From assembly GCA_031972855.1 (NCBI GenBank), contig DALYDY010000005.1, positions 1-52,315 on the forward strand: DNA of 52,315 nucleotides, given 5' to 3'. Below are positions 7,016-33,178 of this stretch, piece by piece. The stretch comes from Minisyncoccota bacterium. GTDB lineage: Bacteria; Patescibacteriota; Minisyncoccia; Phycocordibacterales; UBA9973. How positions within the stretch are numbered: the first letter of the stretch is position 1; each line of letters begins with the position of its first letter. The notes under the pieces are model-generated. The model saw nothing but the letters and a program-made list of their open reading frames with translations, was not told the DNA's origin and ran no database searches. The position numbers and the translations under genes were made by a program.

Positions 7016-8275
7016 ATGATCGATCGCTTAAAACACCAAACAATTCAATTAGAAAACAATATTATAGTCCATTATCTTGCTGACACTGACGCAGGATATG
7101 GTGAAGCGCGGATAATTGTACCTTTTGGACACGCTTACAATAGAGGAGATATTCCACAGGGCTCATTTCACTTCTTAGAACACATGGTTCTGAATCGTTC
7201 AAAACGTTATCCAGAAAAAGATGCTTTTGAGAAATTTGTTGCTGACAATGGTGGATATAGAAATGGTGGTACTGGTCTCGATCTGACATCGTATGAAATA
7301 TCTATTCCAACAGAAACTTTTGATGAAGCATTCAAAGGTCTTGTAAGTCACGTATTTGAACCTATTTTTACAGAAGAAGATTTGGAAAGTCATAAGCAAA
7401 TAGTTCGAAATGAACGTATTCGCTCAACACCGTTTTATCCAGGGAATACAGAACTTGGAGAATATATTAAAAAATATTGGCTTGATGTTGAAGAAGTTTC
7501 ACTTAATCAAAAATTTGGAAGTGATGAAGATTTAAAAAATTTTTCAATTCCATTTTTAGAAAAAATACATAAATACTATTTTACAAAACCAATTACTGTA
7601 ATTGTGGGAGGAACTATTAATATTGATGAAGTTTTGAATACTTTAAAAAATATTTCTATAAATATAGAAGAAGAAAAACTCCCTATTTCTGTAAAACCTA
7701 TCTCTATAGCAAATAAAGAATTTCATGAAAAAGGTTTTAAAGAAGTTGAGAGATATGAATATAGATGTGCTTATTTGATAGATGAGTATTCTCATGACTT
7801 TAATTTTGGTTTAATGTTTTTGAAAGGGTATTTATTAAATGTTGTGGGGCCTATTTATAAATGGCTTCGTGATGAGAAATCTTGGGTATATGAAGTTAAT
7901 GCTATTTCTTTTTCTTCTAATAATTCAAATAAAACATTTTTTGGAATAAAAGCCCCTTTATCTGAAAGATACCAAGTTGATATTGTCCGCACGGAATTAG
8001 ATAAAAGAATTATTGAGGGATTGAGTGATAATGAACGAATCGGAAGATATTTTGAAACACTTATAAAAAAAGAAATTTTTATAAATGAAACAGTAAGTGA
8101 TAGAGTGGAAACTTTGGAAAGTCGTTATTGGGATTACAAAAAAACTTACACCGGAGAAGATTGGCTAAAAGTCGTTGAAAAATACAGACAAGAAAAAGCA
8201 CTTCTTGATCTATATAATTACATAAAAGAAAAAGGGGAGTTCACAGAGTTCTTGGCAAAACCTTTGGAAAAATAA
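7016..8275 (+). CDS. M16 (insulinase/pitrilysin) family zinc peptidase
   Basis: HFLEH (HxxEH) motif, downstream NGGT and E-R pattern, ~420 aa two-domain size. Confidence 0.9.
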   Translation: MIDRLKHQTIQLENNIIVHYLADTDAGYGEARIIVPFGHAYNRGDIPQGSFHFLEHMVLNRSKRYPEKDAFEKFVADNGGYRNGGTGLDLTSYEISIPTETFDEAFKGLVSHVFEPIFTEEDLESHKQIVRNERIRSTPFYPGNTELGEYIKKYWLDVEEVSLNQKFGSDEDLKNFSIPFLEKIHKYYFTKPITVIVGGTINIDEVLNTLKNISINIEEEKLPISVKPISIANKEFHEKGFKEVERYEYRCAYLIDEYSHDFNFGLMFLKGYLLNVVGPIYKWLRDEKSWVYEVNAISFSSNNSNKTFFGIKAPLSERYQVDIVRTELDKRIIEGLSDNERIGRYFETLIKKEIFINETVSDRVETLESRYWDYKKTYTGEDWLKVVEKYRQEKALLDLYNYIKEKGEFTEFLAKPLEK

Positions 8276-15143: not shown

Positions 15144-16595
15144 ATGAGTGAAAAAAATAAAAATTTTTATATAACTACGACTTTGCCGTACGTGAATGCT
15201 GATCCGCACGTTGGTTTTGCTATGGAATTTATTCGTGCTGATGTTATTGCGAGATGGAAAAAATCACAAGGATATAATGTATTTTTTAATACAGGTACAG
15301 ACGAACATGGTCAAAAGCTTTTTGAAGCAGCAAAAAAAGAAGGTGTAGATGTAAAAGACTATGTTGATAGTTATGCAGAAAAATTTAGAGGACTTAAAGA
15401 TTTACTTGGAATAACACAAGATGTTAATTTTATAAGAACAACAGACCAGAAGCATATACAAGCGGCACAAATATTTTGGAGATTGTGTAATCAAAATGGT
15501 TATATCTACAAGAAAACATATCAAGCAAAATATTGTGTAGGATGTGAACTTGAAAAGACAGATAGTGAGCTCGATGATGATGGGGAATGTCCTCTTCATA
15601 AGGGACGTAAGTTAGAGTTGATAGATGAAGAAAATTACTTTTTCAAGTGGAGTTCTTTCCAAAAACCCCTACTTGAATTCTATGAATCAAATCCAGATTT
15701 TGTTATCCCAGATTTTCGTTTTAATGAAATAAAATCATTCGTAGAAAGAGGCCTTGAAGATTTTTCTATTTCTCGTTTGAAATCAAAAATGTCTTGGGGT
15801 ATTCCTGTTCCAGATGATGAGAATCATGTTATGTATGTATGGTTTGATGCTCTTGTAAATTACATATCAACTCTTGGTTGGCCAACTGAGTCAGAATTCA
15901 AAGATTTTTGGATATACGGTACGCCTGTTCAATATTGTGGTAAAGATAATCTACGTCAGCAGTCAGCTATGTGGCAATCAATGCTAATGGCTGCTGGAAT
16001 TCCAAACTCTCACAGGATTATTGTGGATGGATTTATAACGGGGGATGGAGGTATTAAGATGTCTAAGTCAATTGGAAACGTTATCAATCCTTATGATGTT
16101 GTGGAAGAATATGGTACAGATGCCCTCCGATTTTTCTTGCTAAAAGAAATATCATCATTTGAAGACTCACCATTTACAATGGATAGATTTAAAGCTTCTT
16201 ATAATGCAAATCTTGCAAATGGTATAGGTAATCTAACATCACGTCTTTTGAATATGGTTTCTTCTTATGGAGTTTCTATTGATCATATAAAGTTTGAATC
16301 ACTTGCAAATGATGAAATAGAAAAAGCTTATAATGAATTTGATATTGCAAAGGTGATGAATATTGTATGGGCTGAAATAAATGCGCTTGATAAATTTATA
16401 CAAGAGACAGAACCCTTTAAGACTATTAAGACAGACGAAGATAAAGCACGTAGTGATCTAAAATACGCAATACTTCGCTTATCTCATATTGCAGTAACAC
16501 TCGCTCCACTTCTTCCAGAAACATCAGAAAAAATAATAAATTTAATTAAAGAAAACAAAAAACCAGAACAACCTCTATTTTTGAGGAAAGAGTAA
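15144..16595 (+). CDS. metG: Methionine--tRNA ligase, short form
   Basis: YVNADPHVG, GTDEHGQK, YCVGCE..CPLH knuckle, YVWFDAL and KMSKS. Confidence 0.97.
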   Translation: MSEKNKNFYITTTLPYVNADPHVGFAMEFIRADVIARWKKSQGYNVFFNTGTDEHGQKLFEAAKKEGVDVKDYVDSYAEKFRGLKDLLGITQDVNFIRTTDQKHIQAAQIFWRLCNQNGYIYKKTYQAKYCVGCELEKTDSELDDDGECPLHKGRKLELIDEENYFFKWSSFQKPLLEFYESNPDFVIPDFRFNEIKSFVERGLEDFSISRLKSKMSWGIPVPDDENHVMYVWFDALVNYISTLGWPTESEFKDFWIYGTPVQYCGKDNLRQQSAMWQSMLMAAGIPNSHRIIVDGFITGDGGIKMSKSIGNVINPYDVVEEYGTDALRFFLLKEISSFEDSPFTMDRFKASYNANLANGIGNLTSRLLNMVSSYGVSIDHIKFESLANDEIEKAYNEFDIAKVMNIVWAEINALDKFIQETEPFKTIKTDEDKARSDLKYAILRLSHIAVTLAPLLPETSEKIINLIKENKKPEQPLFLRKE

Positions 16596-20557: not shown

Positions 20558-20576
20558 TAGTGTAATAATAACACTA
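20558..20576. promoter_or_regulatory. Operator box 1 (putative NrtR site)
   Basis: TAGTGT-AATAATA-ACACTA, perfect arms, GT-N7-AC core. Confidence 0.8.
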
Positions 20577-20583
20577 AGTAATA

Positions 20584-20602
20584 TAGTGTAGTAAATACAT
20601 TA
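20584..20602. promoter_or_regulatory. Operator box 2 (putative NrtR site)
   Basis: TAGTGT-AGTAAAT-ACATTA, one mismatch, tandem to box 1. Confidence 0.72.
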
Positions 20603-20643
20603 AATAAGTTCGTTGAAAAATCAATAATATAAACTATATAAAA

Positions 20644-21480
20644 ATGAAAAACAAATTTGAAATTAAAGGTGGATCGATTCCTGGAGTTGATCACACATTA
20701 CCCGGTGCGCCGGGTTGGAAAAACAATCAAGATGCATTTTTTGTTTTACAAAATGAAAAAATAACACTTGGTATTGTTGCTGATGGTTGTTCAGAAGGTG
20801 AACATACTGAAGTTGGTTCAAAATTAGCAGTACGACTACTTGGATCTCTAATAATGCGTTTGTATCCTCGTTATGAAGATTCGTTATCTTTGTCACTAGA
20901 ACAAAACACAGAACCATACTTCTTTACTCGCATTAGAGAAGACTTACTTTCTACTCTTCGTCTATTAACAAATCAGATGGGAGATAGTATGACAGAAATT
21001 GTTAAATCATATTTTTCCTTCACTGTTGTTGGTATTCTTGTAACTCCTAAGCGAACATATTTTTTCTCTATTGGTGACGGATTAATTAGTGTAAATGGTA
21101 ACCATAAAAATTTGGGTCCATTTCCAAAAAATGAACCGCCATATCTTGGATTTTCATTACTTGGGGAAAATATTCCTTTTGTAGTAGAACAACATGATAC
21201 TGAAAAAATAGAATGCGCTCTAATTGCTTCTGATGGTATTGATTACTTAATGAAGGCAGAAGGAACCAAAAATCCAAATGGTGTATGGACAATTGAAAAC
21301 ATATCTCTTTTTTGGGAAGATGATTCTTTCTTAAAAAATAGTGACGCAATTCGTCGTAAACTCGCTCTTTATAATACTGAGCATGTTACAAATGAAGGTG
21401 GGTCCCCGTGGATTAAGAAAGGTCAATTAAAAGACGATACAACACTTATTGTTGTTAGAAAAATTTCACAAACAAATTAA
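20644..21480 (+). CDS. PP2C-like protein phosphatase (YegK/PphC-like)
   Basis: G.SIPG..H, NNQDAF, IVADGCSEG, SIGDG, IASDG and DDTTLIVV motifs. Confidence 0.88.
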   Translation: MKNKFEIKGGSIPGVDHTLPGAPGWKNNQDAFFVLQNEKITLGIVADGCSEGEHTEVGSKLAVRLLGSLIMRLYPRYEDSLSLSLEQNTEPYFFTRIREDLLSTLRLLTNQMGDSMTEIVKSYFSFTVVGILVTPKRTYFFSIGDGLISVNGNHKNLGPFPKNEPPYLGFSLLGENIPFVVEQHDTEKIECALIASDGIDYLMKAEGTKNPNGVWTIENISLFWEDDSFLKNSDAIRRKLALYNTEHVTNEGGSPWIKKGQLKDDTTLIVVRKISQTN

Positions 21481-21490
21481 TACGTAGAAA

Positions 21491-22990
21491 ATGAAACTTA
21501 CTATTAATAAAAATACAATCGAGACTAATAGTTTAGGCTTAATTGGAACAGGAGGAGAAGCAGATATTTATCAGTTAAATCAGACACATGTACTAAAAGT
21601 TTTTAAAGATTCTAGGCATCCTGATTATACTGGTAATATTAATGCTCAAGCTGGTGCTCGCGAAAGAATTCGTGTTCACCAAGAAAAGTTACTACAATTT
21701 CCTAAAGGACTTCCATCACAAGTGATAACCCCTTTGGAAATAGCATACGATGTTAGGGGTGCTGTCAGAGGATATATGATGAAACTTATACCTCAAGGGG
21801 TAACGCTTTGGCAATATTCTCAACCAGGCTCATATGTTCGTGGATCTGATGAAGGAAAAATAATATCTTTTCTTCGTTCTATGTATGAAGTTATTATTCA
21901 AATTCACTCAAAAAAAATTGTGATAGGAGACTTCAATGATTTAAACATACTTGTTGATCAAGTATTTCATCCTTGGTTTATTGATTCAGATAGTTATCAA
22001 TTTGGTAAATTCTTGTCAAAAACTTTTGATGAACGTTTTGTTGATCCGCTTTTGTGTATTACCGCAACAGTGGCTACTCATCCTGATATTTGTTCTGATG
22101 GGAAAAGTCATATTGTACTCAGTAAACCACACGGAGAGAAAAGTGACTGGTACGCATTTGCTTCAATGGTCATGCAGACTCTTTGTTCTGTTGGTCCTTA
22201 TGGTGGTGTATATCGTCCAAAATTAAATACGTCGTCTGTGTCACAACACTTACGTCCTATGCACCGCATCTCTATACTTCATCCTGAAGTAATCTATCCT
22301 AAAAAAGCACGCTCTCTTGATTTGTTGCCAGATAATCTTGTTTCGTATTTTGAAGATGTATTTAAAAATGATGTTCGTGGTATTATGCCAAAATCACTTT
22401 TAGATACACTTCGTTTTACAACTTGTACTACTTGTCATACAGTTCACGCTCATGCTGTTTGTCCAAATTGTAACAAACACGTTTTACAACCAATTACTTC
22501 TATTTTTAGAGGTAAGGTTAATGCAGAACGTATTTGGAACACTCGAGGAATTATAGTTACTGCTTCATATGACCATGAATTAGTGTATATCTATCATGAC
22601 GGTATAAGCTATCGCCATAGTAATGGAAATGAAATTCTTCGTGAATCTTATAATCCGTTCATTACATTCTATGTGTCAGGATCTTACACAGTTTATGTTC
22701 GTGGAAATGTACTTTCAGTATTTCACTCTGATAATACTAGAGCAGATTATCCTATTGATGGTAAAACAGGAAATAGGGTAGCTCTCTCTGGTAATAGATT
22801 AGTTTGGATTTCCGATGGGGTTATTACGACAGAAGAAAATATTCTTGGCGTAACAACAACAAAAAAACTTGGAACAGTTCTTGGTGGAAACACCGATATT
22901 TGGACAAGTGACAATGTTGGGTTTGGAAAGTATCGCGCAGGTGAAATAGTTAGATATTTTATTTTTTCTCCAACATACAGTTTTGAATGA
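21491..22990 (+). CDS. YegI-like Ser/Thr protein kinase with CxxC..CxxC Zn ribbon and beta-rich C-terminus (N-terminal part of a frameshifted gene)
   Basis: IGTGGEADIY, VLKVF, IVIGDFNDLNILV, FIDSDS and CTTC...CPNC. Confidence 0.85.
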   Translation: MKLTINKNTIETNSLGLIGTGGEADIYQLNQTHVLKVFKDSRHPDYTGNINAQAGARERIRVHQEKLLQFPKGLPSQVITPLEIAYDVRGAVRGYMMKLIPQGVTLWQYSQPGSYVRGSDEGKIISFLRSMYEVIIQIHSKKIVIGDFNDLNILVDQVFHPWFIDSDSYQFGKFLSKTFDERFVDPLLCITATVATHPDICSDGKSHIVLSKPHGEKSDWYAFASMVMQTLCSVGPYGGVYRPKLNTSSVSQHLRPMHRISILHPEVIYPKKARSLDLLPDNLVSYFEDVFKNDVRGIMPKSLLDTLRFTTCTTCHTVHAHAVCPNCNKHVLQPITSIFRGKVNAERIWNTRGIIVTASYDHELVYIYHDGISYRHSNGNEILRESYNPFITFYVSGSYTVYVRGNVLSVFHSDNTRADYPIDGKTGNRVALSGNRLVWISDGVITTEENILGVTTTKKLGTVLGGNTDIWTSDNVGFGKYRAGEIVRYFIFSPTYSFE

Positions 22991-23396
22991 CAATATTACA
23001 TTACCTCCAATTGCTGGAAAAGTAATTGAAAGTAATGTTTATTTCAGTCAAACATATATTTGGTACTTTATTCTTGTTCAAGAATTAGGTATTCAAAAAG
23101 TACATACATATCTTATTGATTCTAAAACAGGAACACTTATTGCAACAGCTGTAGGCCAAGCAAATGATGGGTCGTGGATAGGGTCAACTAAAGGTAAACT
23201 TGCCTCAGGTAATTTTCTTCTTTCACCATCAGATGATGGTATTGTAAGAATAGAAGCAAATGGAGGAACACTTCATGTTGCTAAAAAATTTCCTGACACG
23301 TATGACATAGTTGATTGTCATACAAATCTATTTCCAGGTAAAACAGGGCTTTCAATTATTTCTTCTCAAGAAATATGGCAAGTCTCAATTAAATAA
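22983..23396 (+). CDS. Probable C-terminal continuation of the kinase in the +1 frame
   Basis: Only a TTG start, no ribosome-binding space, 8-nt overlap at AGTTTTGAATGA. Removing one T fuses the two frames (...YSLNDNITLPP...). Confidence 0.6.
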   Translation: MNDNITLPPIAGKVIESNVYFSQTYIWYFILVQELGIQKVHTYLIDSKTGTLIATAVGQANDGSWIGSTKGKLASGNFLLSPSDDGIVRIEANGGTLHVAKKFPDTYDIVDCHTNLFPGKTGLSIISSQEIWQVSIK

Positions 23397-23430
23397 AACA
23401 ATTCAAAAAACACTTTTAATTTTAAACAAA

Positions 23431-24549
23431 ATGTCAAACAAAGTTTTTCATGGGTATGATCCCAAAAACGCAGAAGACTTCTCTTACAATCCCAATATGG
23501 CATTGGTACAAGAAGCAGCTCTCGCATACGCAAGAGTTAATAATTTACATCCAGGAACAAGCGATAAAATAAAGCTTGCATTGCTGTTGATTGATGCACA
23601 ACGTGACTTCTGTCATAAAGAAGGAACGCTTTACGTAGGTGGCCGAACTGGTGATGGTGCTATAGATGATTCAAAGCGAATTGCTGAGTTCATTTATAAC
23701 AATGTCGGAATCATTTCAAAAACCATTGCAACACTCGATACGCACTTTCCGTGGCAGATTTTTTTCTCTAATTTTTTCGTAAATCGAAAAGGAGAAGAAT
23801 TACAGCCTCATACATTGATCGATGTAGCAGTTGATAATGGCCGTGACATTCTAGTTAATCTTGATTTGGCAGGAAATTTGCTTAACAGTGATATTCTTCC
23901 TAATCCAAAGATTGCTGGTGAATTTAAGGTTAATCCAGCATGGCTACACAGTCAATGTTTGCATTATTGTAAAAGCTTGAAAGATCCAAACAGTGGTCGT
24001 TCGAAGTACACATTGTATCTGTGGCCGTTACATTGCCTTATTGGCAGTATTGGACACACTCTTGTTGGTGTTATTGATGAAGCTCGTCAGTTTCACTCTT
24101 TTGCTCGTTCTTCACAGCCAGAAATTGAAATAAAAGGAGGTAATCCTTTAACTGAAAATTACTCAATCGTCCAACCAGAAGTGTTGACTCTTTTTGATAA
24201 TTTAAACAGTCCTATTGCACAACGCAATGTTTCATTTCTAAAGCAGTTACTCAACTATGATATGGTTGTAATTGCCGGACAAGCTTCAAGTCATTGTGTG
24301 GCTTCATCAATCGATGACATCCTTGCAGAGATTAATGCTAAAGATCCTTCTTTAGCAAAGAAAGTATATATCCTTCGTGATTGTACTTCCGCAGTGGCTG
24401 TCCCTGATGGGAATGGTGGATTTTTTGCAGATTTTACTGATCAAGCAGAAGCAGCTTTCAAACGTTTTGCTGATGCTGGTATGAATGTTGTAAACTCTAC
24501 CGATCCAATTAGTACTTGGCCTGGTGTTGCTAGTACTTTATATTCATAA
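23431..24549 (+). CDS. Cysteine hydrolase (isochorismatase/nicotinamidase superfamily), long form
   Basis: LLLIDAQRDF, TLDTH, WPLHC and AGQASSHCV motifs; start at MSNKV. Confidence 0.9.
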   Translation: MSNKVFHGYDPKNAEDFSYNPNMALVQEAALAYARVNNLHPGTSDKIKLALLLIDAQRDFCHKEGTLYVGGRTGDGAIDDSKRIAEFIYNNVGIISKTIATLDTHFPWQIFFSNFFVNRKGEELQPHTLIDVAVDNGRDILVNLDLAGNLLNSDILPNPKIAGEFKVNPAWLHSQCLHYCKSLKDPNSGRSKYTLYLWPLHCLIGSIGHTLVGVIDEARQFHSFARSSQPEIEIKGGNPLTENYSIVQPEVLTLFDNLNSPIAQRNVSFLKQLLNYDMVVIAGQASSHCVASSIDDILAEINAKDPSLAKKVYILRDCTSAVAVPDGNGGFFADFTDQAEAAFKRFADAGMNVVNSTDPISTWPGVASTLYS

Positions 24550-24558
24550 CACTTGCCC

Positions 24559-24591
24559 AGTGTGACAAAGCTTTAAAAACTTTGTCACACT
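24559..24591. repeat. Intercistronic hairpin between the hydrolase and vWA genes
   Basis: agtgtgacaaag-ctttaaaaa-ctttgtcacact, no strong U-tract. Confidence 0.6.
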
Positions 24592-24636
24592 TAATAAAAT
24601 AGTTTTAAAATCAAACAACAATTAAATAAAAAAAAC

Positions 24637-25422
24637 ATGTCAAACAACACAACACTGCTCAATGATGCAGTAAATAATGGAAATCTTTCACCTGATGCTT
24701 TAGTTGCAATGAATAATATTCCTGATTTAGGATTAGCATTGCAACATGCAATGGGGGTGAATATTGATGACATTAATTCCAGTGAAATTACATTGGTAGC
24801 AATGCTCATCGATGATTCAAGCTCAATCAGAAGTGGTGGAAATGAACGCATTGTTTGTGATGGCCATAATATGGTTATCGAATCTATTAAAGATTCCAAA
24901 CAAAAAAACGGCGTTCTTATACTAACAAAGTATTTGAATGGAAAAGTTTTATGTCCTTGGGCTCCTATAGATCAGGCGGTGATTATGGACTCACAAAATT
25001 ATCACGCAAATGGTAGTACACCACTTTATGATCAGACCGTTGAATTCCTTGCATTAATTGCCGCGAAGACCGAAGAGTTTGAGCAAATGGCCGGTGTTCC
25101 TGTTCGTAGTATAAGCCTTATCATTAGTGATGGTGCTGACTATGGTTCATACACACAAAAGCCTCATAATGTATCTGCTGTAGTTAAGAGTATGTTAAAA
25201 AGTGAAAAGCATATCATTGCAGCTATGGGTATCGATGATGGCTCTACTGATTTCAAAAAAATATTCTCAAGTATGGGATTAGAAGATTCATGGATCCTTA
25301 CACCAGGTAATTCTGAAAAAGAAATTCGTGCATCATTTAGAATGTTTTCTCAGAGTGCTGTCCGTGCAAGCCAAAGCGGTGCAGGATTTAGCAAAACCGC
25401 AATGGGTGGTTTTGGAAATTAA
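24637..25422 (+). CDS. von Willebrand factor A domain protein (YegL/TerY-like)
   Basis: MIDAS motifs LIDDSSSI, NGSTPLYD and IISDG. Confidence 0.85.
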   Translation: MSNNTTLLNDAVNNGNLSPDALVAMNNIPDLGLALQHAMGVNIDDINSSEITLVAMLIDDSSSIRSGGNERIVCDGHNMVIESIKDSKQKNGVLILTKYLNGKVLCPWAPIDQAVIMDSQNYHANGSTPLYDQTVEFLALIAAKTEEFEQMAGVPVRSISLIISDGADYGSYTQKPHNVSAVVKSMLKSEKHIIAAMGIDDGSTDFKKIFSSMGLEDSWILTPGNSEKEIRASFRMFSQSAVRASQSGAGFSKTAMGGFGN

Positions 25423-25455
25423 GTTTTAAAAAATAGTTCTTTCTGTTCTTTTTAC

Positions 25456-25531
25456 AAAGCGATGATATATTCATCGCTTTTTTTATTTTTAATAAATAAA
25501 CAATAAAAAAAGTCCCGCATTAGAGCGGGAC
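25456..25531. terminator. Back-to-back terminators for the vWA operon (+) and pncAB (-)
   Basis: aaagcgatga/tcatcgcttt plus T-run; gtcccgc/gcgggac preceded by an A7 run. Confidence 0.7.
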
Positions 25532-25544
25532 CTGTATGAGGTCC

Positions 25545-27449
25545 TTATACCTCACATTTTTTACTGTAGGTTTCGTGATACTGCAGAGCTTTTTTGTAAG
25601 CCTCTACTGTTTCAGGGTGACCCATGGCTTTGGCGGCATTGTCTGAAATTTTCACACAATATTTGCCGTCAATTGAGTAGGGTTTCGAAACGATTGATAA
25701 CTGCTTCAATCCCAAATTGTTGGTCAACTTTGTGCCCCAACCAAATGATATTTTTGTTTGATCAGCAAATTTATTTGTTATATTGATCATGTCAGGAATA
25801 TCGAGCCCGTCACTTGGGACCGACATTTTTCCTTTAGGATCAATATTAAATGATTTGTACTTTTCAAAAAGACTTGGAATTGCTTCCATTGGATCTTTTG
25901 AATCAATCCTAAAGCCTTTCCAATTATGGAAGACTTCTTTTGGAAGAAACTTGAAAGCAAAATCTGTACCATATGTATCAGGTAGGGAAATTGATAATGC
26001 ATAGCTATATTTTTTCCACCACGATTCATGTAGTTTTATGAATGGTTTTTTTATTGATTCGATTGAACCATCAAATTCCATTGCAACCATTCCCATAGAA
26101 AGTTCGTGGGCACAAGTACCAATCGGCATCAAGTCATACTTGGAAGCCAACGATACTTTTGAAGTACCGACAAACTGCGAACCCAATTCTTCAGCACAGC
26201 GTGATATAACAAAATCGTGCCACATAGTTCCAAAGCTTCGGCGATTACCGAAGTCTGAGAAGAATATTTTTGGATTATCTTTGATAATCTTAATATTTTT
26301 ACTCAAACGTTGAATACCTTCCGCATATACCGCCTCACGTTCCATCCGGGACATTTTTTTGAGTTGTGCTCGGTAATAAAGACCATTCACAATTCTTAAT
26401 GTTGGAATTTCTGCATGTTTTGAGTGTATCCACGGGCCCTTGGTTCTTATATCAAGCTGGCCGTTTTCAATGCCGAACGTAGGTTCGGGAATCCGCAAGT
26501 TTGCCAAATGATCCAAATATGGTTCATCAAACATTCTTGTTTCGTATTCATTTACACCACGTAAGTAATGTAACTCCGTCCTGGTTGCTTGTAATGCTAT
26601 AACATGAGCATATTCAGCCATAAAATCATCTTCAGTGATGAATTGGGCTAAATGTACATCTTTGGTACGGTTTTTGAATCTCCATTCCATTTCAGCATTA
26701 GCTAGGTGTGGGTGATCAAACAGAAAATTTCCCATTGAAAATTTGTAGAAGTCATCTTCCAAAACAGAAGTGACTATTGGCTCCTCGAGCATTGATTGGT
26801 CGAGCAAGTCCAAGTTTAGAGGAGGTAATCGTTTGATTGGTTTTTCTAAATGATTTCTTTTGATTGGTTGCTCACAAACATCAACGGTTGTTGTTTGGAT
26901 TGCGCCACTCATTTTCATCAAATGAATAGCGTCTCTTTCATCGTTCATCTTTACATTCACTGCTGCCATTGCATCAACTAGGAAAAAGGTTTCAAAACCA
27001 TTTTTAATGGAATCTAAAACTGTTGCTTTTACGCAATAGTCTGTAGCGAGGCCTCCAATATAAACTGTTTTAATTCCTTGGCTTTTTAGGAAGTCTTCAA
27101 GGTTCATACCTTGTCCTTCTACTGTACCGTGTTCATCGAATGCAGAATATGCATCCTCGTTACCCATACCTTTTGAGAGTATGTATGCAGTTGAAGGGAA
27201 GATTAGATCTTTGTGAAATTCGGCACCATGCGTATTTTGCACACAATGCTCTTTCCATTTTATGAAATGACTTGTATCTTTTGGATGCCAGTCACGAGTG
27301 AAAATTATGAGCCAGCCACTTTTTTGGGCATACTCAATCATTTTGTTCCAAGTGCCGATTAAAAGATCAGCACCTTCTACTCCCAAGGCTCCGCCAGGGA
27401 AGAAGTCTTTTGCAAGGTCAACCAAGACCAAAGCTTTCTTTGTTTTCAT
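25545..27449 (-). CDS. pncB: Fusion of nicotinamidase (PncA) and nicotinate phosphoribosyltransferase (PncB)
   Basis: N-half VDLAKDF, TRDWH, HCVQ, SKG and GLATDYCV; C-half DDFYKFSM, DFGNRR, GTCAHE, PDTYG, RIDS, SDGL, FGWGT and KISDN. Confidence 0.92.
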   Translation of the reverse strand: MKTKKALVLVDLAKDFFPGGALGVEGADLLIGTWNKMIEYAQKSGWLIIFTRDWHPKDTSHFIKWKEHCVQNTHGAEFHKDLIFPSTAYILSKGMGNEDAYSAFDEHGTVEGQGMNLEDFLKSQGIKTVYIGGLATDYCVKATVLDSIKNGFETFFLVDAMAAVNVKMNDERDAIHLMKMSGAIQTTTVDVCEQPIKRNHLEKPIKRLPPLNLDLLDQSMLEEPIVTSVLEDDFYKFSMGNFLFDHPHLANAEMEWRFKNRTKDVHLAQFITEDDFMAEYAHVIALQATRTELHYLRGVNEYETRMFDEPYLDHLANLRIPEPTFGIENGQLDIRTKGPWIHSKHAEIPTLRIVNGLYYRAQLKKMSRMEREAVYAEGIQRLSKNIKIIKDNPKIFFSDFGNRRSFGTMWHDFVISRCAEELGSQFVGTSKVSLASKYDLMPIGTCAHELSMGMVAMEFDGSIESIKKPFIKLHESWWKKYSYALSISLPDTYGTDFAFKFLPKEVFHNWKGFRIDSKDPMEAIPSLFEKYKSFNIDPKGKMSVPSDGLDIPDMINITNKFADQTKISFGWGTKLTNNLGLKQLSIVSKPYSIDGKYCVKISDNAAKAMGHPETVEAYKKALQYHETYSKKCEV

Positions 27450-27487
27450 AAATTTACTTTATTTAATTGTTTTTCAATGTTCTTTAT

Positions 27488-27506
27488 TAGTGTCTTTATT
27501 ACACTA
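27488..27506. promoter_or_regulatory. Operator box 3 (putative NrtR site) overlapping the pncAB extended -10
   Basis: TAGTGT-CTTTATT-ACACTA; minus-strand TGA-TATAGT at 27511-27503. Confidence 0.8.
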
Positions 27507-27591
27507 TATCATAATGTAGATTTAGTGTATATATTTTTATTTATTATAAACCATATATTTAAATAAGTCAATAGTAGTATAATTATCTATA

Positions 27592-27610
27592 TATTGTATT
27601 TATTACACTA
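27592..27610. promoter_or_regulatory. Operator box 4 (putative NrtR site) at the nadD promoter
   Basis: TATTGT-ATTTATT-ACACTA directly before TGA-TATACT (27613-27621). Confidence 0.72.
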
Positions 27611-27627
27611 TATGATATACTGTATTT

Positions 27628-28209
27628 ATGAAAGATAATCATAAACATATAGGACTCTTGTTTGGATCATTCAATCCTATTCATGAGGGGCACATCGCTC
27701 TGGCAGAAGAGGCTCTTTTAGAAAAAACTGTTGACGAAGTGTGGTTTGTTGTTTCTCCTCAAAATCCTCAAAAAGACAAAAAAACACTCGCTTCATTTGA
27801 AGATAGGGTCAATATGGTAGAGATTGCAATTGAAGGGCTTTCAAATATATCTGTTTCCAAAATTGAAGAATATTTATCTGTACCTTCATATACTTATCAC
27901 ACACTTGAGTTATTAAGAGAACAACATCCAGAATATATTTTTTCTATTATTGGTGGTAGTGATATTTTAGAAACACTACACACTTGGAAAAATTCAGTTG
28001 AAATTATTTTACATCACGACTTTATTGTACGTTCTAGAAATAAAGAACCTATAATTATTCCTGAAGGTGTACGAGTCAAAGTTCTTTCTGGAATAAAAGA
28101 ACTTTCAGCAACCCTAATTAGACAAGATATTACAGATCAGATTTTAGAAAAAGAATCTATCAATCCACTAGTTATAAAATATATAAAAGAAAATCAACTA
28201 TATAAATAG
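27628..28209 (+). CDS. nadD: Nicotinate-nucleotide adenylyltransferase
   Basis: GLLFGSFNPIHEGH, PSYTYHTL, IIGGSD, W.N and LSATLIR. Confidence 0.93.
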   Translation: MKDNHKHIGLLFGSFNPIHEGHIALAEEALLEKTVDEVWFVVSPQNPQKDKKTLASFEDRVNMVEIAIEGLSNISVSKIEEYLSVPSYTYHTLELLREQHPEYIFSIIGGSDILETLHTWKNSVEIILHHDFIVRSRNKEPIIIPEGVRVKVLSGIKELSATLIRQDITDQILEKESINPLVIKYIKENQLYK

Positions 28210-28211
28210 CG

Positions 28212-28664
28212 TTATTGTTGTATCCACAAAACAGCTTCTTCTAAAGTTTTTGCTTGGTGTATTTTATATCGTTCGCAAATAATATCTATATTTCCTTTTC
28301 TCCAAAAACCTTCAGGACAGACCACAATCATTTTATTGGGTTTTGTACCAAATAAACCAAGTTCTAAAAGACTGATAGGGGATTTTGTTTTGGGATCAAA
28401 ATATAAAATAACTTTATGTGCTTGTTCAAGTCCATCAAGTTCCCAATTTACTTGATTATAAAATTCATAATTTTCTTTTTCTTGTTTCCAATCGCTGTTC
28501 CAAGAATCTCGTCTAGGATTAAATATTGTCCACTCTGTATCTTTTAGCATATAAGTCACACGATCTTGCCATTTTTCTGCTATATCCATTTCGATACTTC
28601 CAGCAAGGAATACTGAAGGATGTGTTTGGTCTGGAATATTTTCTGGTGGCTTAATCATTCTCAT
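28212..28664 (-). CDS. Nucleoside 2-deoxyribosyltransferase-like protein
   Basis: VFLAGSIE, W.Q, FNPRR, WEL..L..A and SPISLLELG. Confidence 0.8.
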   Translation of the reverse strand: MRMIKPPENIPDQTHPSVFLAGSIEMDIAEKWQDRVTYMLKDTEWTIFNPRRDSWNSDWKQEKENYEFYNQVNWELDGLEQAHKVILYFDPKTKSPISLLELGLFGTKPNKMIVVCPEGFWRKGNIDIICERYKIHQAKTLEEAVLWIQQ

Positions 28665-28681
28665 AATACTAATTTTATTAT

Positions 28682-29347
28682 TTAAAAATTTTTTATTTCT
28701 AGTTCTTTTACTGCACGAGTATAAAGCTTTGCTGGACGTTGTCTCATACCTGTTAGAACGTGTTTTGTTTCTTTTATAAAACCAAGTTGATCTATTTGTT
28801 TTCTAAAATTTCTTTTATCAAGTTTTTTGTTTAGAATAACTTCATATACTTCTTGTAGTTGTGATAGTGTAAAGAGTTTTGGTAATACATTTATACCTAT
28901 TGTTGTGTACTCAAGCTTGCCTCTAAGACGTTTAATACCATAATTAATAATATCTTTATGGTCAAATGCTAGTTGTGGAAGTTTTTTTATATCGTATAGT
29001 GCTGGGGCTTGAGCCTGACTATTTTCTTTTGAATAAGTAAGTGGAGAGGGAATAAGAGCTATATAGGTAATTGAAAAAACTGGTCCACGTGGATCACGGC
29101 CTGGTGTATAAAAAGTATATAACTGTTCAAGATATGAAGGTTTTACACCTGTTTTTTCTTCTAGTATACGAATGGCTGCAATTTCTGCTGTTTCGCCAGC
29201 TAGTAAATAACCTCCAGGAAGTGCATGTATACCTTGGAATGGTTTACCTTCACGCTCAATCAGAAGCACTTTTAAGGCTCCGTCTTCTATTGTTGCTAGT
29301 ATTATATCTACAGTCACGGTTGGATTTAAAAACTGTTTTTCTTTCAT
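28682..29347 (-). CDS. nrtR: NrtR-family regulator (Nudix plus winged HTH)
   Basis: PTVTVD, LPGG...RILEEKTG, LEQLYTF...RDPRG, LAFDH, FTLSQLQ.VYE.IL, DKRNFRK and RPAKLY. Confidence 0.9.
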   Translation of the reverse strand: MKEKQFLNPTVTVDIILATIEDGALKVLLIEREGKPFQGIHALPGGYLLAGETAEIAAIRILEEKTGVKPSYLEQLYTFYTPGRDPRGPVFSITYIALIPSPLTYSKENSQAQAPALYDIKKLPQLAFDHKDIINYGIKRLRGKLEYTTIGINVLPKLFTLSQLQEVYEVILNKKLDKRNFRKQIDQLGFIKETKHVLTGMRQRPAKLYTRAVKELEIKNF

Positions 29348-29355
29348 AATTTATA

Positions 29356-31296
29356 TTATAACTCTTTTAGCCATGTATCAGCTAGAGCGTCTGAAGGCAT
29401 ACGCCAGTCGCCACGAGGAGAAAGTGAAACAGATCCTACTTTTGGTCCGTCAGGCATTACAGAGCGTTTCCATTGATTTTTGAAAAATCTACTAATAAAT
29501 GATTTTAACCATTTTTTTATAACATCTTCACTAAAATCTCCTTCGAAAGCAATCGTCGCAAGTGCTAGTATTTTTTGTGGACTACTACCCCAACGCACAA
29601 GGTGATATAGAAAGAAATCATGAAGAATATATGGTCCAACAACATCTTCTGTTTTTTGAGTTACAACATCATCTGTCATTCTTGTTAGTTCTGGAGATAT
29701 AGGTGTTTCAAGAATATCAATAAGAACTTTTTTAAGTTTTTCATCACTCATTTCTGCTACATGACGAACAATATATTGAACAAGAGTTTTTGGAATACTT
29801 CCATTTACATTATAGTGAGCCATTTGATCACCGTTGAAAGTACACCAACCGAGAGCACTTTCAGAAAGATCTCCTGTACCAATAACCATCCCGCCGACTT
29901 GATTTGCTTTGTCCATAAGTATCATTGTTCGGTATCTAGCTTGGCTATTTTCAAAAACAACATCTTCGTTTTTTGGGTCGTGACCTATATCTTTAAAATG
30001 TTGCAATACTCCATCACTGATTGATATTTCTTCTAAGGTTACTCCTGTAGACTCTGCAAGAATAACGGCATTATTCTTTGTTCCTGATGTTGTACCAAAT
30101 CCTGGCATTGTTATGGCTACAATATTTTCTTTTGGAAGATTAAGAGCTTCACAAGTTTTTAAACAAACAAGAAATGCAAGAGTAGAATCAAGACCACCAG
30201 AAAGACCTATAACCATTTTTTTAACTCCAGAACTCTCGAGGCGTTTTGCTAAGCCTGTTACTTGGATATTAAAGATATCGTCAACAACTTCGATTTGCTC
30301 TGCTTTATTGTCAGGAAGGAAAGGAGTTTTGCTTACTGTACGTTTTAAAGGTAGGTCTTTTACACTTTGTATATTAACGGGAATTTTTTGATATTTTTGA
30401 TTTTCTACTGAATATTGATTGTCGGCAAAAGAATTTGTACGATTTCTTTCTGTAACTAAATGGTCTATATCAATATCAGCATAAGTTATTACTGTTTCTC
30501 TTTTAAAACGAGGTGATTCTGAAATCATTATTCCATTTTCCGCAATGATTGAATGTCCACTAAAAACCACATCAGTTGTTGATTCATCAACTCCAGAAGA
30601 AACGTATGCGTACGCACTTATTGTTTTAGCGGATTGCATTATGCTTAGATTTTTTCTATAAGCAGCTTTTCCAACAAGTTCATTTGAAGCTGAAAGATTT
30701 AAAAGTATTGTGGCACCATTTAAAGCATGTAGGGTTGATGGGGGAATAGGCATCCATCCGTCTTCACATATATCAATACCAAAAGTAATTTGTTCATTTG
30801 TTGTATCAGAAAATAATAAAGAACGACCATAAGGTATATCTTCATTATTTATTTTAATTGTATTTTCGTGAGTTTCGAATCCAGAAATAAACCAACGTTT
30901 TTCATAAAATTCTTTATAGTTTGGAAGGTGTAGTTTTGGAACAACTCCAACTATTTTTCCATTTGTATATATAACAGCTGCATTGATAATTCCACGAACT
31001 GTACGTATTGGAGCGCCGACAACAATAGTCGCTTCTATATCTCTAAGTTCTTCACTCAATTTTTCAAGACCTTCTGCAACATCTTTGTGCAATGATTCAT
31101 TAAGAAACAAATCTCCAGCAGTATAGCCAGTCAAAGCAAGTTCTGGAAGAACTATTAGTCTTGCGCCTTCAAAATAAGCATTTTTAATACTTTCTAGACA
31201 GATAATGATATTTTTTTGTACGTCTCCAATCGAAAGACGGGGACTAATGGTTGCAATTCTAACAAATGTGTAAGGAGTCTTGTGTTTTGATGACAT
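29356..31296 (-). CDS. nadE: Glutamine-dependent NAD+ synthetase
   Basis: Nitrilase domain (PELALTGY, KLHLPNYKEFYE, DICED) plus GLSGGLDSTLA, ENSQARYR, GTGDLSE and SPEL. Confidence 0.97.
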   Translation of the reverse strand: MSSKHKTPYTFVRIATISPRLSIGDVQKNIIICLESIKNAYFEGARLIVLPELALTGYTAGDLFLNESLHKDVAEGLEKLSEELRDIEATIVVGAPIRTVRGIINAAVIYTNGKIVGVVPKLHLPNYKEFYEKRWFISGFETHENTIKINNEDIPYGRSLLFSDTTNEQITFGIDICEDGWMPIPPSTLHALNGATILLNLSASNELVGKAAYRKNLSIMQSAKTISAYAYVSSGVDESTTDVVFSGHSIIAENGIMISESPRFKRETVITYADIDIDHLVTERNRTNSFADNQYSVENQKYQKIPVNIQSVKDLPLKRTVSKTPFLPDNKAEQIEVVDDIFNIQVTGLAKRLESSGVKKMVIGLSGGLDSTLAFLVCLKTCEALNLPKENIVAITMPGFGTTSGTKNNAVILAESTGVTLEEISISDGVLQHFKDIGHDPKNEDVVFENSQARYRTMILMDKANQVGGMVIGTGDLSESALGWCTFNGDQMAHYNVNGSIPKTLVQYIVRHVAEMSDEKLKKVLIDILETPISPELTRMTDDVVTQKTEDVVGPYILHDFFLYHLVRWGSSPQKILALATIAFEGDFSEDVIKKWLKSFISRFFKNQWKRSVMPDGPKVGSVSLSPRGDWRMPSDALADTWLKEL

Positions 31297-31304
31297 ATAA
31301 TATA

Positions 31305-31323
31305 TAGTGTTTATAGTACACTA
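31305..31323. promoter_or_regulatory. Operator box 5 (putative NrtR site) upstream of nadE-nrtR
   Basis: TAGTGT-TTATAGT-ACACTA, 9 nt from the nadE start codon. Confidence 0.8.
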
Positions 31324-32094: not shown

Positions 32095-32110
32095 AGATTT
32101 TTGTCCCAAA

Positions 32111-32168
32111 GCACCTTTTAAGCAAAGGTGTTTTTTTATTTGACATATTAATAAATATATAATACAAT
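32111..32168 (+). promoter_or_regulatory. Terminator followed by the overlapping prs promoter
   Basis: gcaccttt/aaaggtg plus T7; TTGACA 32140-32145, 17-nt spacer, TACAAT 32163-32168. Confidence 0.7.
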
Positions 32169-32191: not shown

Positions 32192-33178
32192 ATGAACAAT
32201 AAGGACACAATTTATGTGTGTGTTGTTGGAAACAAACATGCATTACAAAAAGAAATCATTGAAGCTCTTAAGAAGATTCACTCACAAGTTGTTGAGATTC
32301 ATAACGACATATTCCGTTTTGAAAGTGGAGAACACAAACCTGTAATTAAAGAGTCTGTTAGAAATAAAGATGTTATTGTTATCTCTACTTTGGAAGAGAA
32401 TATTGATACTGAAGTATTAAAACTTCTATTTACTATAGACGCTCTGAGACGGGCAAGTGCCAACAGAATAGATGTGCTGATGCCATACCTATATTATGAC
32501 AGGCAAGATAAAACCAGTGGTAAAAGAGAATCTATTAGTTGTGCTATTCTCGCAAGATTTTATGAATTGTGTGGTGCTAGTAGTATGACTACTGTCCATC
32601 TACATAATGAAGCAATCGAAGGGTTCTTTCATGGACCTTGTGACTCTATAGGAACTAGGAAGCTTTTTTGGAATCATCTGAAAAATTATTGCATTGCTAA
32701 AGACGAATATTTTGACCCTTCTGAATGGATGATAATTTTTCCTGACGAAGGTGCAAGTAAAATTGTTAGAGACTATGTAAAGAGAGCTGGTGCTGGAGGT
32801 TATGCTGGATTTTCAAAACAGCGAATTGTTGCAAATGATGTTGAGTGGATGGATTTTTTTGGTAAAGTTGAAGGGATGCGTTGTTTTGTATTTGATGACA
32901 AAATAGATACTGGCGGAACTTTGGTAAAAGCCGGCAAATTATTGATAGAACAAGGAGCTAAAGAAACAATAGCTGCTTGTACTTACGGATTACTAAATCG
33001 TACAGCACCTACAGATCTTCAAAATTCAGCATATTCAAAAATTTTCATTACGGATTTAATGAATATTCCAGAATCAAAACTTTTTAACAAGCTTGAGATT
33101 GTTGGAACGGCAGAATATTTAGCTGAAGTCCTTATCAAAAAACACCACGGAGAATCTCTCCGTGAGGAATATTGGTAG
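32192..33178 (+). CDS. prs: Ribose-phosphate pyrophosphokinase family protein (divergent)
   Basis: FESGE, ESVRNKDV, PYLYYDRQDK, PDEG and DDKIDTGGT. Confidence 0.9.
   Translation: MNNKDTIYVCVVGNKHALQKEIIEALKKIHSQVVEIHNDIFRFESGEHKPVIKESVRNKDVIVISTLEENIDTEVLKLLFTIDALRRASANRIDVLMPYLYYDRQDKTSGKRESISCAILARFYELCGASSMTTVHLHNEAIEGFFHGPCDSIGTRKLFWNHLKNYCIAKDEYFDPSEWMIIFPDEGASKIVRDYVKRAGAGGYAGFSKQRIVANDVEWMDFFGKVEGMRCFVFDDKIDTGGTLVKAGKLLIEQGAKETIAACTYGLLNRTAPTDLQNSAYSKIFITDLMNIPESKLFNKLEIVGTAEYLAEVLIKKHHGESLREEYW

Follow-up and report, generated by a model that had tools for sequence, protein, structure and literature searches.

A predicted NrtR regulon joining NAD+ salvage genes and a kinase, phosphatase and nicotinamidase-like gene cassette in Patescibacteria and other phyla

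Genes for the synthesis and salvage of nicotinamide adenine dinucleotide (NAD+) lie together in contig DALYDY010000005.1 of a Minisyncoccota bacterium (Patescibacteriota; assembly GCA_031972855.1), which was analysed over its full length of 52,315 nucleotides (nt) and is called the window here. This NAD island contains a pncA-pncB fusion (pncAB), nadD, an operon of nadE, nrtR and a nucleoside 2-deoxyribosyltransferase-like gene (NDT), and a Nudix hydrolase gene. Next to it, and convergent with pncAB, is a cassette of four genes, which encode a PP2C-type phosphatase, a Ser/Thr kinase, a long nicotinamidase-like protein (NamL) and a protein predicted to resemble von Willebrand factor A (vWA) domains. 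Each transcription unit of the island is preceded by a copy of the palindromic box TAGTGT-N7-ACACTA, and the cassette by a tandem pair of them. All features are listed in Table 1.

A pattern scan of the window, allowing one mismatch, gives exactly five matches to this box, whereas dinucleotide-preserving shuffles of the same sequence contain 0.15 on average and at most 1. All five are intergenic. An earlier note on this DNA had reported five boxes, three with perfect arms and two with one mismatch, and the scan returns the same five at the same positions. Boxes 3 and 4 both lie in the divergent spacer between pncAB and nadD, while box 5 lies in a second divergent spacer, with nadE-nrtR-NDT on one side and the Nudix gene on the other, and is predicted to be the autoregulatory site of the nrtR operon. 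The earlier note assigned to the regulon the PP2C operon, pncAB, nadD and nadE-nrtR-NDT. These assignments are supported, and the Nudix gene across box 5, which had been missed, is added to them. The gene identities proposed there agree overall with the family matches. The exceptions are the vWA assignment, which is made by motifs only, and the cassette "hydrolase", which is more exactly a long nicotinamidase-like enzyme; it is for this latter reason that the cassette itself is considered to be NAD-related.

Table 1. Features of the NAD island, the adjacent cassette and the next gene, in window coordinates. aa, amino acid residues.
Feature	Position	Strand	Remarks
NrtR box 1 (predicted)	20558-20576		TAGTGTAATAATAACACTA, perfect arms; distal member of tandem pair; 68 nt 5' of PP2C start (20644)
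NrtR box 2 (predicted)	20584-20602		TAGTGTAGTAAATACATTA, 1 mismatch; proximal member of tandem pair; 26 nt from box 1; 42 nt 5' of PP2C ATG
PP2C-type Ser/Thr phosphatase, 278 aa, cassette gene 1	20644-21480	+	Pfam PP2C_2 (PF13672), E 9.4e-14
YegI-type Ser/Thr kinase with zinc ribbon and all-beta C-terminal domain	21491-23396	+	635 aa elsewhere; here open reading frames 21491-22990 and 22983-23396
NamL, long nicotinamidase-like cysteine hydrolase, 372 aa	23431-24549	+	Fold match to PncA; predicted
MIDAS/vWA-like protein, 261 aa, last gene of cassette	24637-25422	+	Motif-level assignment
Two terminator-like hairpins, facing each other	25456-25533		Between convergent cassette and pncAB; 25456-25480 on plus, 25533-25510 on minus
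PncA-PncB fusion (nicotinamidase and nicotinate phosphoribosyltransferase), 634 aa	25545-27449	-	Pfam Isochorismatase, NAPRTase_N, NAPRTase; NCBIfam
NrtR box 3 (predicted)	27488-27506		Perfect arms; 39 nt 5' of pncAB ATG (27449, minus strand)
NrtR box 4 (predicted)	27592-27610		TATTGT..., 1 mismatch; 18 nt 5' of nadD ATG (27628)
nadD, nicotinate-nucleotide adenylyltransferase	27628-28209	+	TIGR00482, 130 bits (cut-off 112)
NDT, nucleoside 2-deoxyribosyltransferase-like, last gene of nadE-nrtR operon	28212-28664	-	Pfam PF15891, E 1.4e-32; no NCBIfam match
nrtR, Nudix-like sensor domain and winged-helix DNA-binding domain	28682-29347	-	Pfam NUDIX, E 9.3e-13; NrtR_WHD, E 3.2e-23
nadE, glutamine-dependent NAD synthetase	29356-31296	-	NF002730, 841 bits (cut-off 473)
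NrtR box 5 (predicted)	31305-31323		Perfect arms; 9 nt 5' of nadE (31296, minus strand) and 73 nt 5' of Nudix gene (31396)
Nudix hydrolase, 232 aa	31396-32094	+	Pfam NUDIX, E 1.5e-5; NF008003 ADP-ribose diphosphatase, E 8.5e-6, far below cut-off
prs, phosphoribosyl pyrophosphate (PRPP) synthetase	32192-33178	+	TIGR01251, 229 bits; without box

The control of pncAB, nadD and nadE by NrtR is a textbook case. In most non-catalytic NrtR proteins the Nudix signature is degenerate, and the operators published for the family are palindromes of 21 bp built around a GT-N7-AC core (Rodionov et al., 2008; PMC2330246). In the same work ADP-ribose released NrtR from DNA in vitro for both of the proteins tested, from Synechocystis and Shewanella, and other effectors were proposed for some branches of the family. 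The NrtR of the window likewise has a degenerate Nudix signature, RILEEK instead of REUxEE, and the stretch LDKRNFRK in its winged helix-turn-helix domain is at least 90% conserved among it and 45 cassette-linked NrtRs. The boxes lie 5' of NAD synthesis and salvage genes and of the operon that contains nrtR itself, as they do in other loci.

In order to obtain comparative information, contigs from one genome per species were searched with a profile of the kinase. The search gave 520 relatives confirmed by tblastn, of which the best 80 were taken with 10-kb flanks, and the cassette is accordingly taken to be conserved in at least 520 species genomes. The counts of boxes and of nrtR given below refer to 75 non-redundant loci, and the density of boxes to 1.37 Mb of related loci. 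A box was taken as upstream of a cassette if it lies within 300 bp 5' of the PP2C gene or of a co-directional nrtR-PP2C unit. The loci come from Patescibacteria, Cyanobacteria, Myxococcota, Acidobacteriota, Gammaproteobacteria, Desulfobacterota and others, and the kinase family forms 869 clusters at 50% identity (E values up to 1e-30). The gene order PP2C, kinase, NamL, vWA-like is kept in nearly all of the best 80 loci. In some loci from Myxococcota the kinase and NamL genes are separated by an additional gene, accompanied in some cases by an additional box (L031 at 12588, L056 at 11923, L075 at 12664).

Across these phyla, the NAD salvage genes, nrtR and the cassette are connected by a specific and conserved family of operators. 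A box is present upstream of the cassette in 54 of the 75 loci with up to one mismatch, and in 61 with up to two. The 1.37 Mb contain 87 boxes altogether, and 72 of these fall in the 30.7 kb that make up the upstream zones of cassettes and of nrtR, equivalent to a density of 2.35 per kb in these zones and 0.011 per kb elsewhere, an enrichment of around 200-fold. Most of the boxes outside the zones are 5' of pncB, nadE or nadD, as for example at nadE/pncB in L012, at pncB in L030 and L063, and in the divergent spacer of pncAB and nadD in L084. The motif is therefore not a common one, either in the window or in the related loci. In 45 loci a homologue of nrtR lies no more than 10 kb from the cassette; in Myxococcota it is immediately upstream and runs in the same direction, and in cyanobacteria it is divergent. 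The box is more frequent in these loci: 38 of the 45 with a flanking nrtR have a box, compared to 16 of the 30 without (Fisher p 0.004, uncorrected for phylogeny). Orthologous PP2C operons linked to nrtR thus mostly carry the box. Both results favour the earlier note, which had named a common motif and orthologous operons without the box among three findings that would refute its proposal. Tandem pairs 5' of the PP2C gene, 22–26 nt apart, occur in 23 of the 75 loci.

A symmetrised logo of the 87 sites reads W-TAGTGT-N7-ACACTA-W. In its length of 21 bp, its palindromic form and its GT-N7-AC core it is of the published NrtR operator type (PMC2330246). In alignments of related Patescibacteria the boxes stand out as conserved islands within diverged intergenic DNA, and the tandem pair is kept there. 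This is the outcome of the footprinting comparison suggested in the earlier note. For boxes 3 and 4 the window was compared with the closest other species (L084, positions 15946-16136). Box 4 is within an island of about 35 nt, where the two sequences differ at two bases, both in the spacer of the box, and its arm mismatch is common to both. Box 3 is not kept in L084.

Two further observations were made on the boxes of related Patescibacteria. A perfect DnaA-box-like sequence, TTATCCACA, lies some 30–45 nt 5' of the tandem boxes in three of them (L084 at about 9050, L003 at about 805 and L004 at about 7840), and is absent from the window. L084 has two more boxes, at 7666 and 7732, in the divergent spacer of an Amidase_3/PG_binding gene and two genes with no Pfam match (285 and 303 residues), and these genes are possible additional NrtR targets in that species.

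Outside the five core genes, the recurrent neighbours of the cassette are PncB (17 loci), NadD or NAD kinase (11), NadE (6), Prs (6) and Nudix proteins (4). Except in two close relatives, the PncB encoded nearby lacks a PncA domain, and only two loci have a separate PncA-like gene in the vicinity. The cassette may supply a nicotinamidase to pncB loci that have no canonical pncA nearby.

The proteins of the cassette have been further analysed. Across 75 homologues of the PP2C protein, conservation is 90% or more at the metal-binding aspartates D30, D47, D145, D197 and D264/265. The kinase is modelled by AlphaFold2 with a predicted local distance difference test score (pLDDT) of 89, residues 1–305 forming a protein kinase fold. 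Its invariant residues include G21, G22 and E23 of the glycine loop, the lysine K36, the catalytic D147 and N152, and D165 and D167 of a DxD motif, and they are followed by the invariant cysteines C312, C315, C324 and C327 of a zinc ribbon. The family profile, built from 37 homologues, can be aligned with YegI of E. coli across the kinase and the zinc ribbon (hhalign probability 98.3%, E 1.2e-14). The remaining C-terminal part, of about 300 residues, is an all-beta domain that is specific to the family. Searched against PDB chains by sequence, neither the kinase, NamL nor the vWA-like protein gives a match better than E 0.3.

The kinase gene of the window has a 2-nt (CA) deletion near position 22975 that is absent from three further assemblies of this organism (L081-L083). 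The deletion divides the gene into reading frames of 499 and 137 residues, and may reflect a mistake in the assembly, variation within the population or a pseudogene. The window also matches GenBank contig DALYFF010000005.1 over 21.9 kb, with three substitutions and one 2-nt deletion as the only differences.

NamL is likewise modelled by AlphaFold2 with pLDDT 89. Its best fold matches in the PDB, using Foldseek, are the PncA nicotinamidases 2wta (E 2.4e-9), 1ilw and 3pl1, and a fold search of BFVD finds giant-virus nicotinamidases only. Across 36 sequences D55, K235 and C289 do not vary, and their equivalence to the nicotinamidase triad is assigned from the motif context; the motif D103-x-H105 is also invariant, as are H201, H209 and H222, and these Asp and His residues are candidates for a metal site like that of PncA. 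An insertion of around 150 residues is present. Some sources annotate NamL homologues as nicotinamidase, and the NamL of the window has no match to Pfam Isochorismatase at E 0.001 or better. Some homologues (P0135, P0192; L048 11917-13689) have an extra N-terminal domain of about 240 residues with no Pfam match.

In the last protein of the cassette D59-x-S61-x-S63, T128 and D165 are completely or almost completely conserved, with a spacing like that of the vWA metal ion-dependent adhesion site (MIDAS). It has no Pfam match, and it matches E. coli YegL weakly (hhalign E 0.002, probability 14%). Residues 234–261 form an invariant serine-rich tail, FSQSAVRASQ..FSQTA.GGFG, which could accept phosphate from the kinase or serve as its docking peptide.

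All or part of the cassette also occurs on 16 contigs of IMG/VR (L087-L102), which are 42–545 kb long and are classed as viral in that database. Their flanks encode NAD synthetase, nicotinate phosphoribosyltransferase (NAPRTase), homing endonucleases, and DNA polymerase and primase families of phage type. In GenBank phages there are only distant NamL homologues (about 30% identity), in three very large uncultured phage genomes of 462–595 kb, without the cassette; searches of plasmids also gave distant homologues only. One of these, on the Vibrio vulnificus megaplasmid NZ_CP015514.1 (L105, 783717-784556), is 27% identical to NamL and lies 4 kb from a gene of the TerD family, which points to a possible connection of long nicotinamidase-like proteins with Ter-type stress loci.

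As for the rest of the window, the contig is chromosomal and Paceibacteria/Nomurabacteria-like, with genes for tRNA synthetases, S6-SSB-S18, EF-P, RecA and 23S rRNA. An Rfam scan of the whole window gives no match in the island, to a riboswitch or to any other RNA, the only match being the 23S rRNA gene at the contig end (50187-52315), which runs off the contig and where the G+C content rises to 46%. The NDT gene of the nadE-nrtR operon is not seen beside the cassette in other loci. The product of the Nudix gene weakly resembles an ADP-ribose diphosphatase by sequence. The gene prs adjoins the island and fits the pathway. It has no NrtR box, and is preceded by a terminator-like hairpin (32108-32134) and then by the best promoter-like site in the region (32140-32168, TTGACA-17-TACAAT). 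It therefore appears to be expressed independently of the regulon, and as a member of the regulon it is rejected on present evidence.

On the basis of these observations, we conclude that the boxes are very probably operators of the NrtR encoded in the island, and that the cassette belongs to its regulon. The earlier note's central proposal, that a single NrtR regulon joins NAD salvage to a phospho-signalling operon, is in this respect supported by comparative genomics, as a prediction from sequence. By analogy with the NrtR family, NrtR dimers would occupy the boxes and repress transcription while NAD+ is intact. When NAD+ is cleaved, ADP-ribose would bind to the catalytically degenerate Nudix domain and NrtR would leave the DNA. 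Derepression would then yield the whole Preiss-Handler route from nicotinamide (Nam) through nicotinate (Na), nicotinate mononucleotide (NaMN) and nicotinate adenine dinucleotide (NaAD) to NAD+, carried out by PncA/NamL, PncB, NadD and NadE, together with the Nudix enzyme, which with Prs could turn ADP-ribose into PRPP. The double operator suggests that the cassette is repressed more tightly than the NAD genes at single-box promoters. Taken as a whole, an NrtR regulon over both the NAD island and the cassette, with NAD+ cleavage as the proposed trigger and this role for the cassette, is the best explanation of the data and a likely one.

What the cassette does is less certain. That it works in the recycling of nicotinamide and NAD+ is a proposition for which we would give roughly even chances. 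NamL might deamidate nicotinamide or nicotinamide nucleotide and so feed PncB. The kinase, the PP2C phosphatase and the vWA-like protein might form a phospho-switch of the TerY-P type, gating the NamL step or reporting damage to or loss of NAD+, though the details of such a switch are speculative and more probably wrong than right. In its widest form, we tentatively hypothesise that the cassette is an undescribed and horizontally mobile response module for NAD+ damage, which is induced through NrtR when NAD+ is cleaved, and whose phospho-switch controls a nicotinamide-deamidating enzyme or signals the loss of NAD+. It would be used for recovery from NAD+-depleting attack by Patescibacteria, cyanobacteria and myxobacteria and, without NrtR, as counter-defence by very large phages. 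This wider picture is possible, and we would not call it probable.

Several results weigh against the interpretation given above. With respect to regulation, the NrtR of the window matches NCBIfam TransRepNtr with E 7.8e-44, and its score of 150 bits is under the equivalog cut-off of 400. Between 14 and 21 of the 75 cassette loci have no upstream box. The box is also missing from 14 of the 16 IMG/VR contigs, which have no clear nrtR (one weak NrtR-like match, at 32%), and the cassette is therefore not dependent on NrtR. Sigma-70-like hexamers adjoin or overlap several of the boxes of the window, as the earlier note pointed out; these are no more frequent than chance in DNA of 33% G+C (53 found, 56.7 expected), so that promoter overlap carries no weight in the argument. 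The box scans covered the 52-kb contig and the flanks of related loci. With respect to the cassette, the frameshift in the kinase gene means that the cassette may be defective in this genome, or else that the assembly is in error. NamL scores below the curated models (23.7 bits for NF008623, cut-off 174), and as a plain nicotinamidase it would be redundant in the window, since a canonical PncA is already fused to PncB there. The family profile of the 261-residue protein finds no match in PDB or Pfam, so its vWA-like character is a prediction from motifs only.

Other explanations of the same data must also be considered. In the main one, the cassette could be a TerY-P-type antiphage defence that is merely wired to NrtR, such that a first-line NADase raises ADP-ribose and induces a second line consisting of the kinase, phosphatase and vWA-like protein, with NamL serving to remove nicotinamide and not to salvage it. 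The architecture of PP2C, kinase with zinc ribbon and vWA-like protein does fit the TerY-P triad, the kinase is homologous to YegI, and modules like TerY-P have been reported as stand-alone defence systems (PMC11090510). The patchy phyletic spread of the cassette, combined with high sequence conservation, suggests horizontal transfer and would be in keeping with a defence function. However, when all the cassette proteins, NDT, NrtR and neighbouring proteins were compared with the PADLOC profiles, only one weak and unrelated match was obtained at E 0.001 or better, and no match of a cassette protein to TerY-P reached E 0.01. The genes around the cassette serve NAD biosynthesis and not defence, the cassette is retained beside housekeeping genes in the small genomes of Patescibacteria, and the position of the IMG/VR copies near nadE and NAPRTase genes is a better fit to restoration of NAD+ than to host defence. 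We regard a defence system of this kind as doubtful.

Alternatively, the boxes could be NrtR operators that respond to some other NAD-related metabolite, such as ribose 5-phosphate, phospho-ADP-ribose, NaAD or NAD+, in which case the regulon would report something other than NAD+ cleavage. The degenerate Nudix signature would allow this, and alternatives of this kind have been proposed for some NrtR branches, whereas ADP-ribose freed both of the tested NrtRs from DNA (PMC2330246). The genes of the regulon (Nudix, pncAB, nadD and nadE, with prs adjacent) are those that one would expect if ADP-ribose and nicotinamide are to be recycled, and a different effector is accordingly judged improbable. 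There is very little likelihood that the boxes are simply chance palindromes, or that some unrelated factor, for example NiaR, binds them, with the pair in front of the PP2C gene belonging to the divergent efp or to nothing. The DNA is of 33% G+C with AT-rich spacers, and the start of efp is only 109 nt from box 1, but the excess of sites over the shuffled sequence, the enrichment across phyla and the co-occurrence of boxes with nrtR have already largely refuted this explanation. The NiaR motif has a different spacing from that of the boxes, and we know of no niaR gene in the island. When the upstream neighbour changes, as in L084 where it is an amidase gene, the boxes stay with the PP2C operon. 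Since they track the cassette in this way, a role for the boxes as regulators of efp is rejected.

We are aware of no paper that describes the cassette or links it to NrtR, having made full-text searches whose coverage was without two key papers, on TerY-P and on the NrtR-DNA structure. Neither the 2008 survey of NrtR regulons (PMC2330246) nor later regulon papers mention a unit of kinase, PP2C, vWA-like protein and nicotinamidase. Control of NAD genes by NrtR is known; what would be new is the predicted extension of the regulon, beyond metabolic enzymes, to Ser/Thr phospho-signalling, in the form of a TerY-P-like cassette with a dedicated nicotinamidase-like enzyme. The cleavage of NAD+ is central to bacterial immunity, to the action of toxins and to phage counter-defence. 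Triads of the TerY-P type are widespread, and their input and targets are so far not known. Here conserved operators connect one branch of these triads to a metabolic sensor (NrtR, whose known ligand is ADP-ribose), and the same branch is associated with an enzyme class (nicotinamidase) and a pathway (Preiss-Handler salvage). For a family that counts hundreds of members at the species level, among them those of the genetically tractable Myxococcus and cyanobacteria, this offers an input and an output that can be tested.

Comparison with known systems places the cassette between several of them. NARP1, NARP2 and NARP3 of phages are mobile sets of genes that rebuild NAD+ from its cleavage products; the cassette, for its part, is found on IMG/VR contigs near nadE and NAPRTase genes. 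NARP3 consists of PnuC and a NadR-like enzyme (PMC13464706), and NARP1 and NARP2 use other enzymes; unlike the cassette, no NARP contains a switch of kinase, PP2C and vWA. NamL shares with PncA, of the isochorismatase superfamily, the fold (TM-score to target 0.70–0.78), the positions of the Asp-Lys-Cys triad, the DxH motif and the link to pncB. It differs in being about twice as long and in always being encoded together with the kinase, PP2C and vWA-like trio.

The TerY-P triad combines genes for a PP2C phosphatase, for a Ser/Thr kinase fused at its C-terminus to a zinc ribbon and for a MIDAS/vWA protein (PMC11090510), and in E. coli YegI and PphC are an active kinase and phosphatase pair (bioRxiv 10.1101/819920, 10.1101/303594). 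The cassette has the phosphatase and the kinase with zinc ribbon in common with TerY-P and with YegI-PphC-YegL, and its last protein is a putative counterpart, by motif, of their MIDAS/vWA protein. It differs from TerY-P in the order of the genes, in the constant presence of a fourth and highly conserved nicotinamidase-like gene, in its predicted control by NrtR, and in its location among NAD genes instead of Ter or restriction genes. In addition, the vWA-like protein matches no vWA model, and the all-beta C-terminal domain of the kinase fails to align with YegI.

The closest resemblance on the regulatory side is to the NrtR regulons of Rodionov et al. (2008; PMC2330246), which have in common with the window a Nudix-like sensor joined to a winged helix, the same type of palindromic operator, the targets pncA/pncB, nadD and nadE, and an autoregulated nrtR within the nadE operon. 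The cyanobacterial arrangement pncB-nadD-nrtR-nadE described there resembles the layout of the window. The published regulons comprise genes for NAD, pentose and ADP-ribosylation metabolism and an unnamed two-gene unit, nrtX-nrtY, for which our searches of later papers found no follow-up, and Patescibacteria and Myxococcota are outside their coverage. To these the window would add an operon of kinase, PP2C, vWA-like protein and long nicotinamidase, whose promoter, unlike those of the published regulons, carries a tandem double box.

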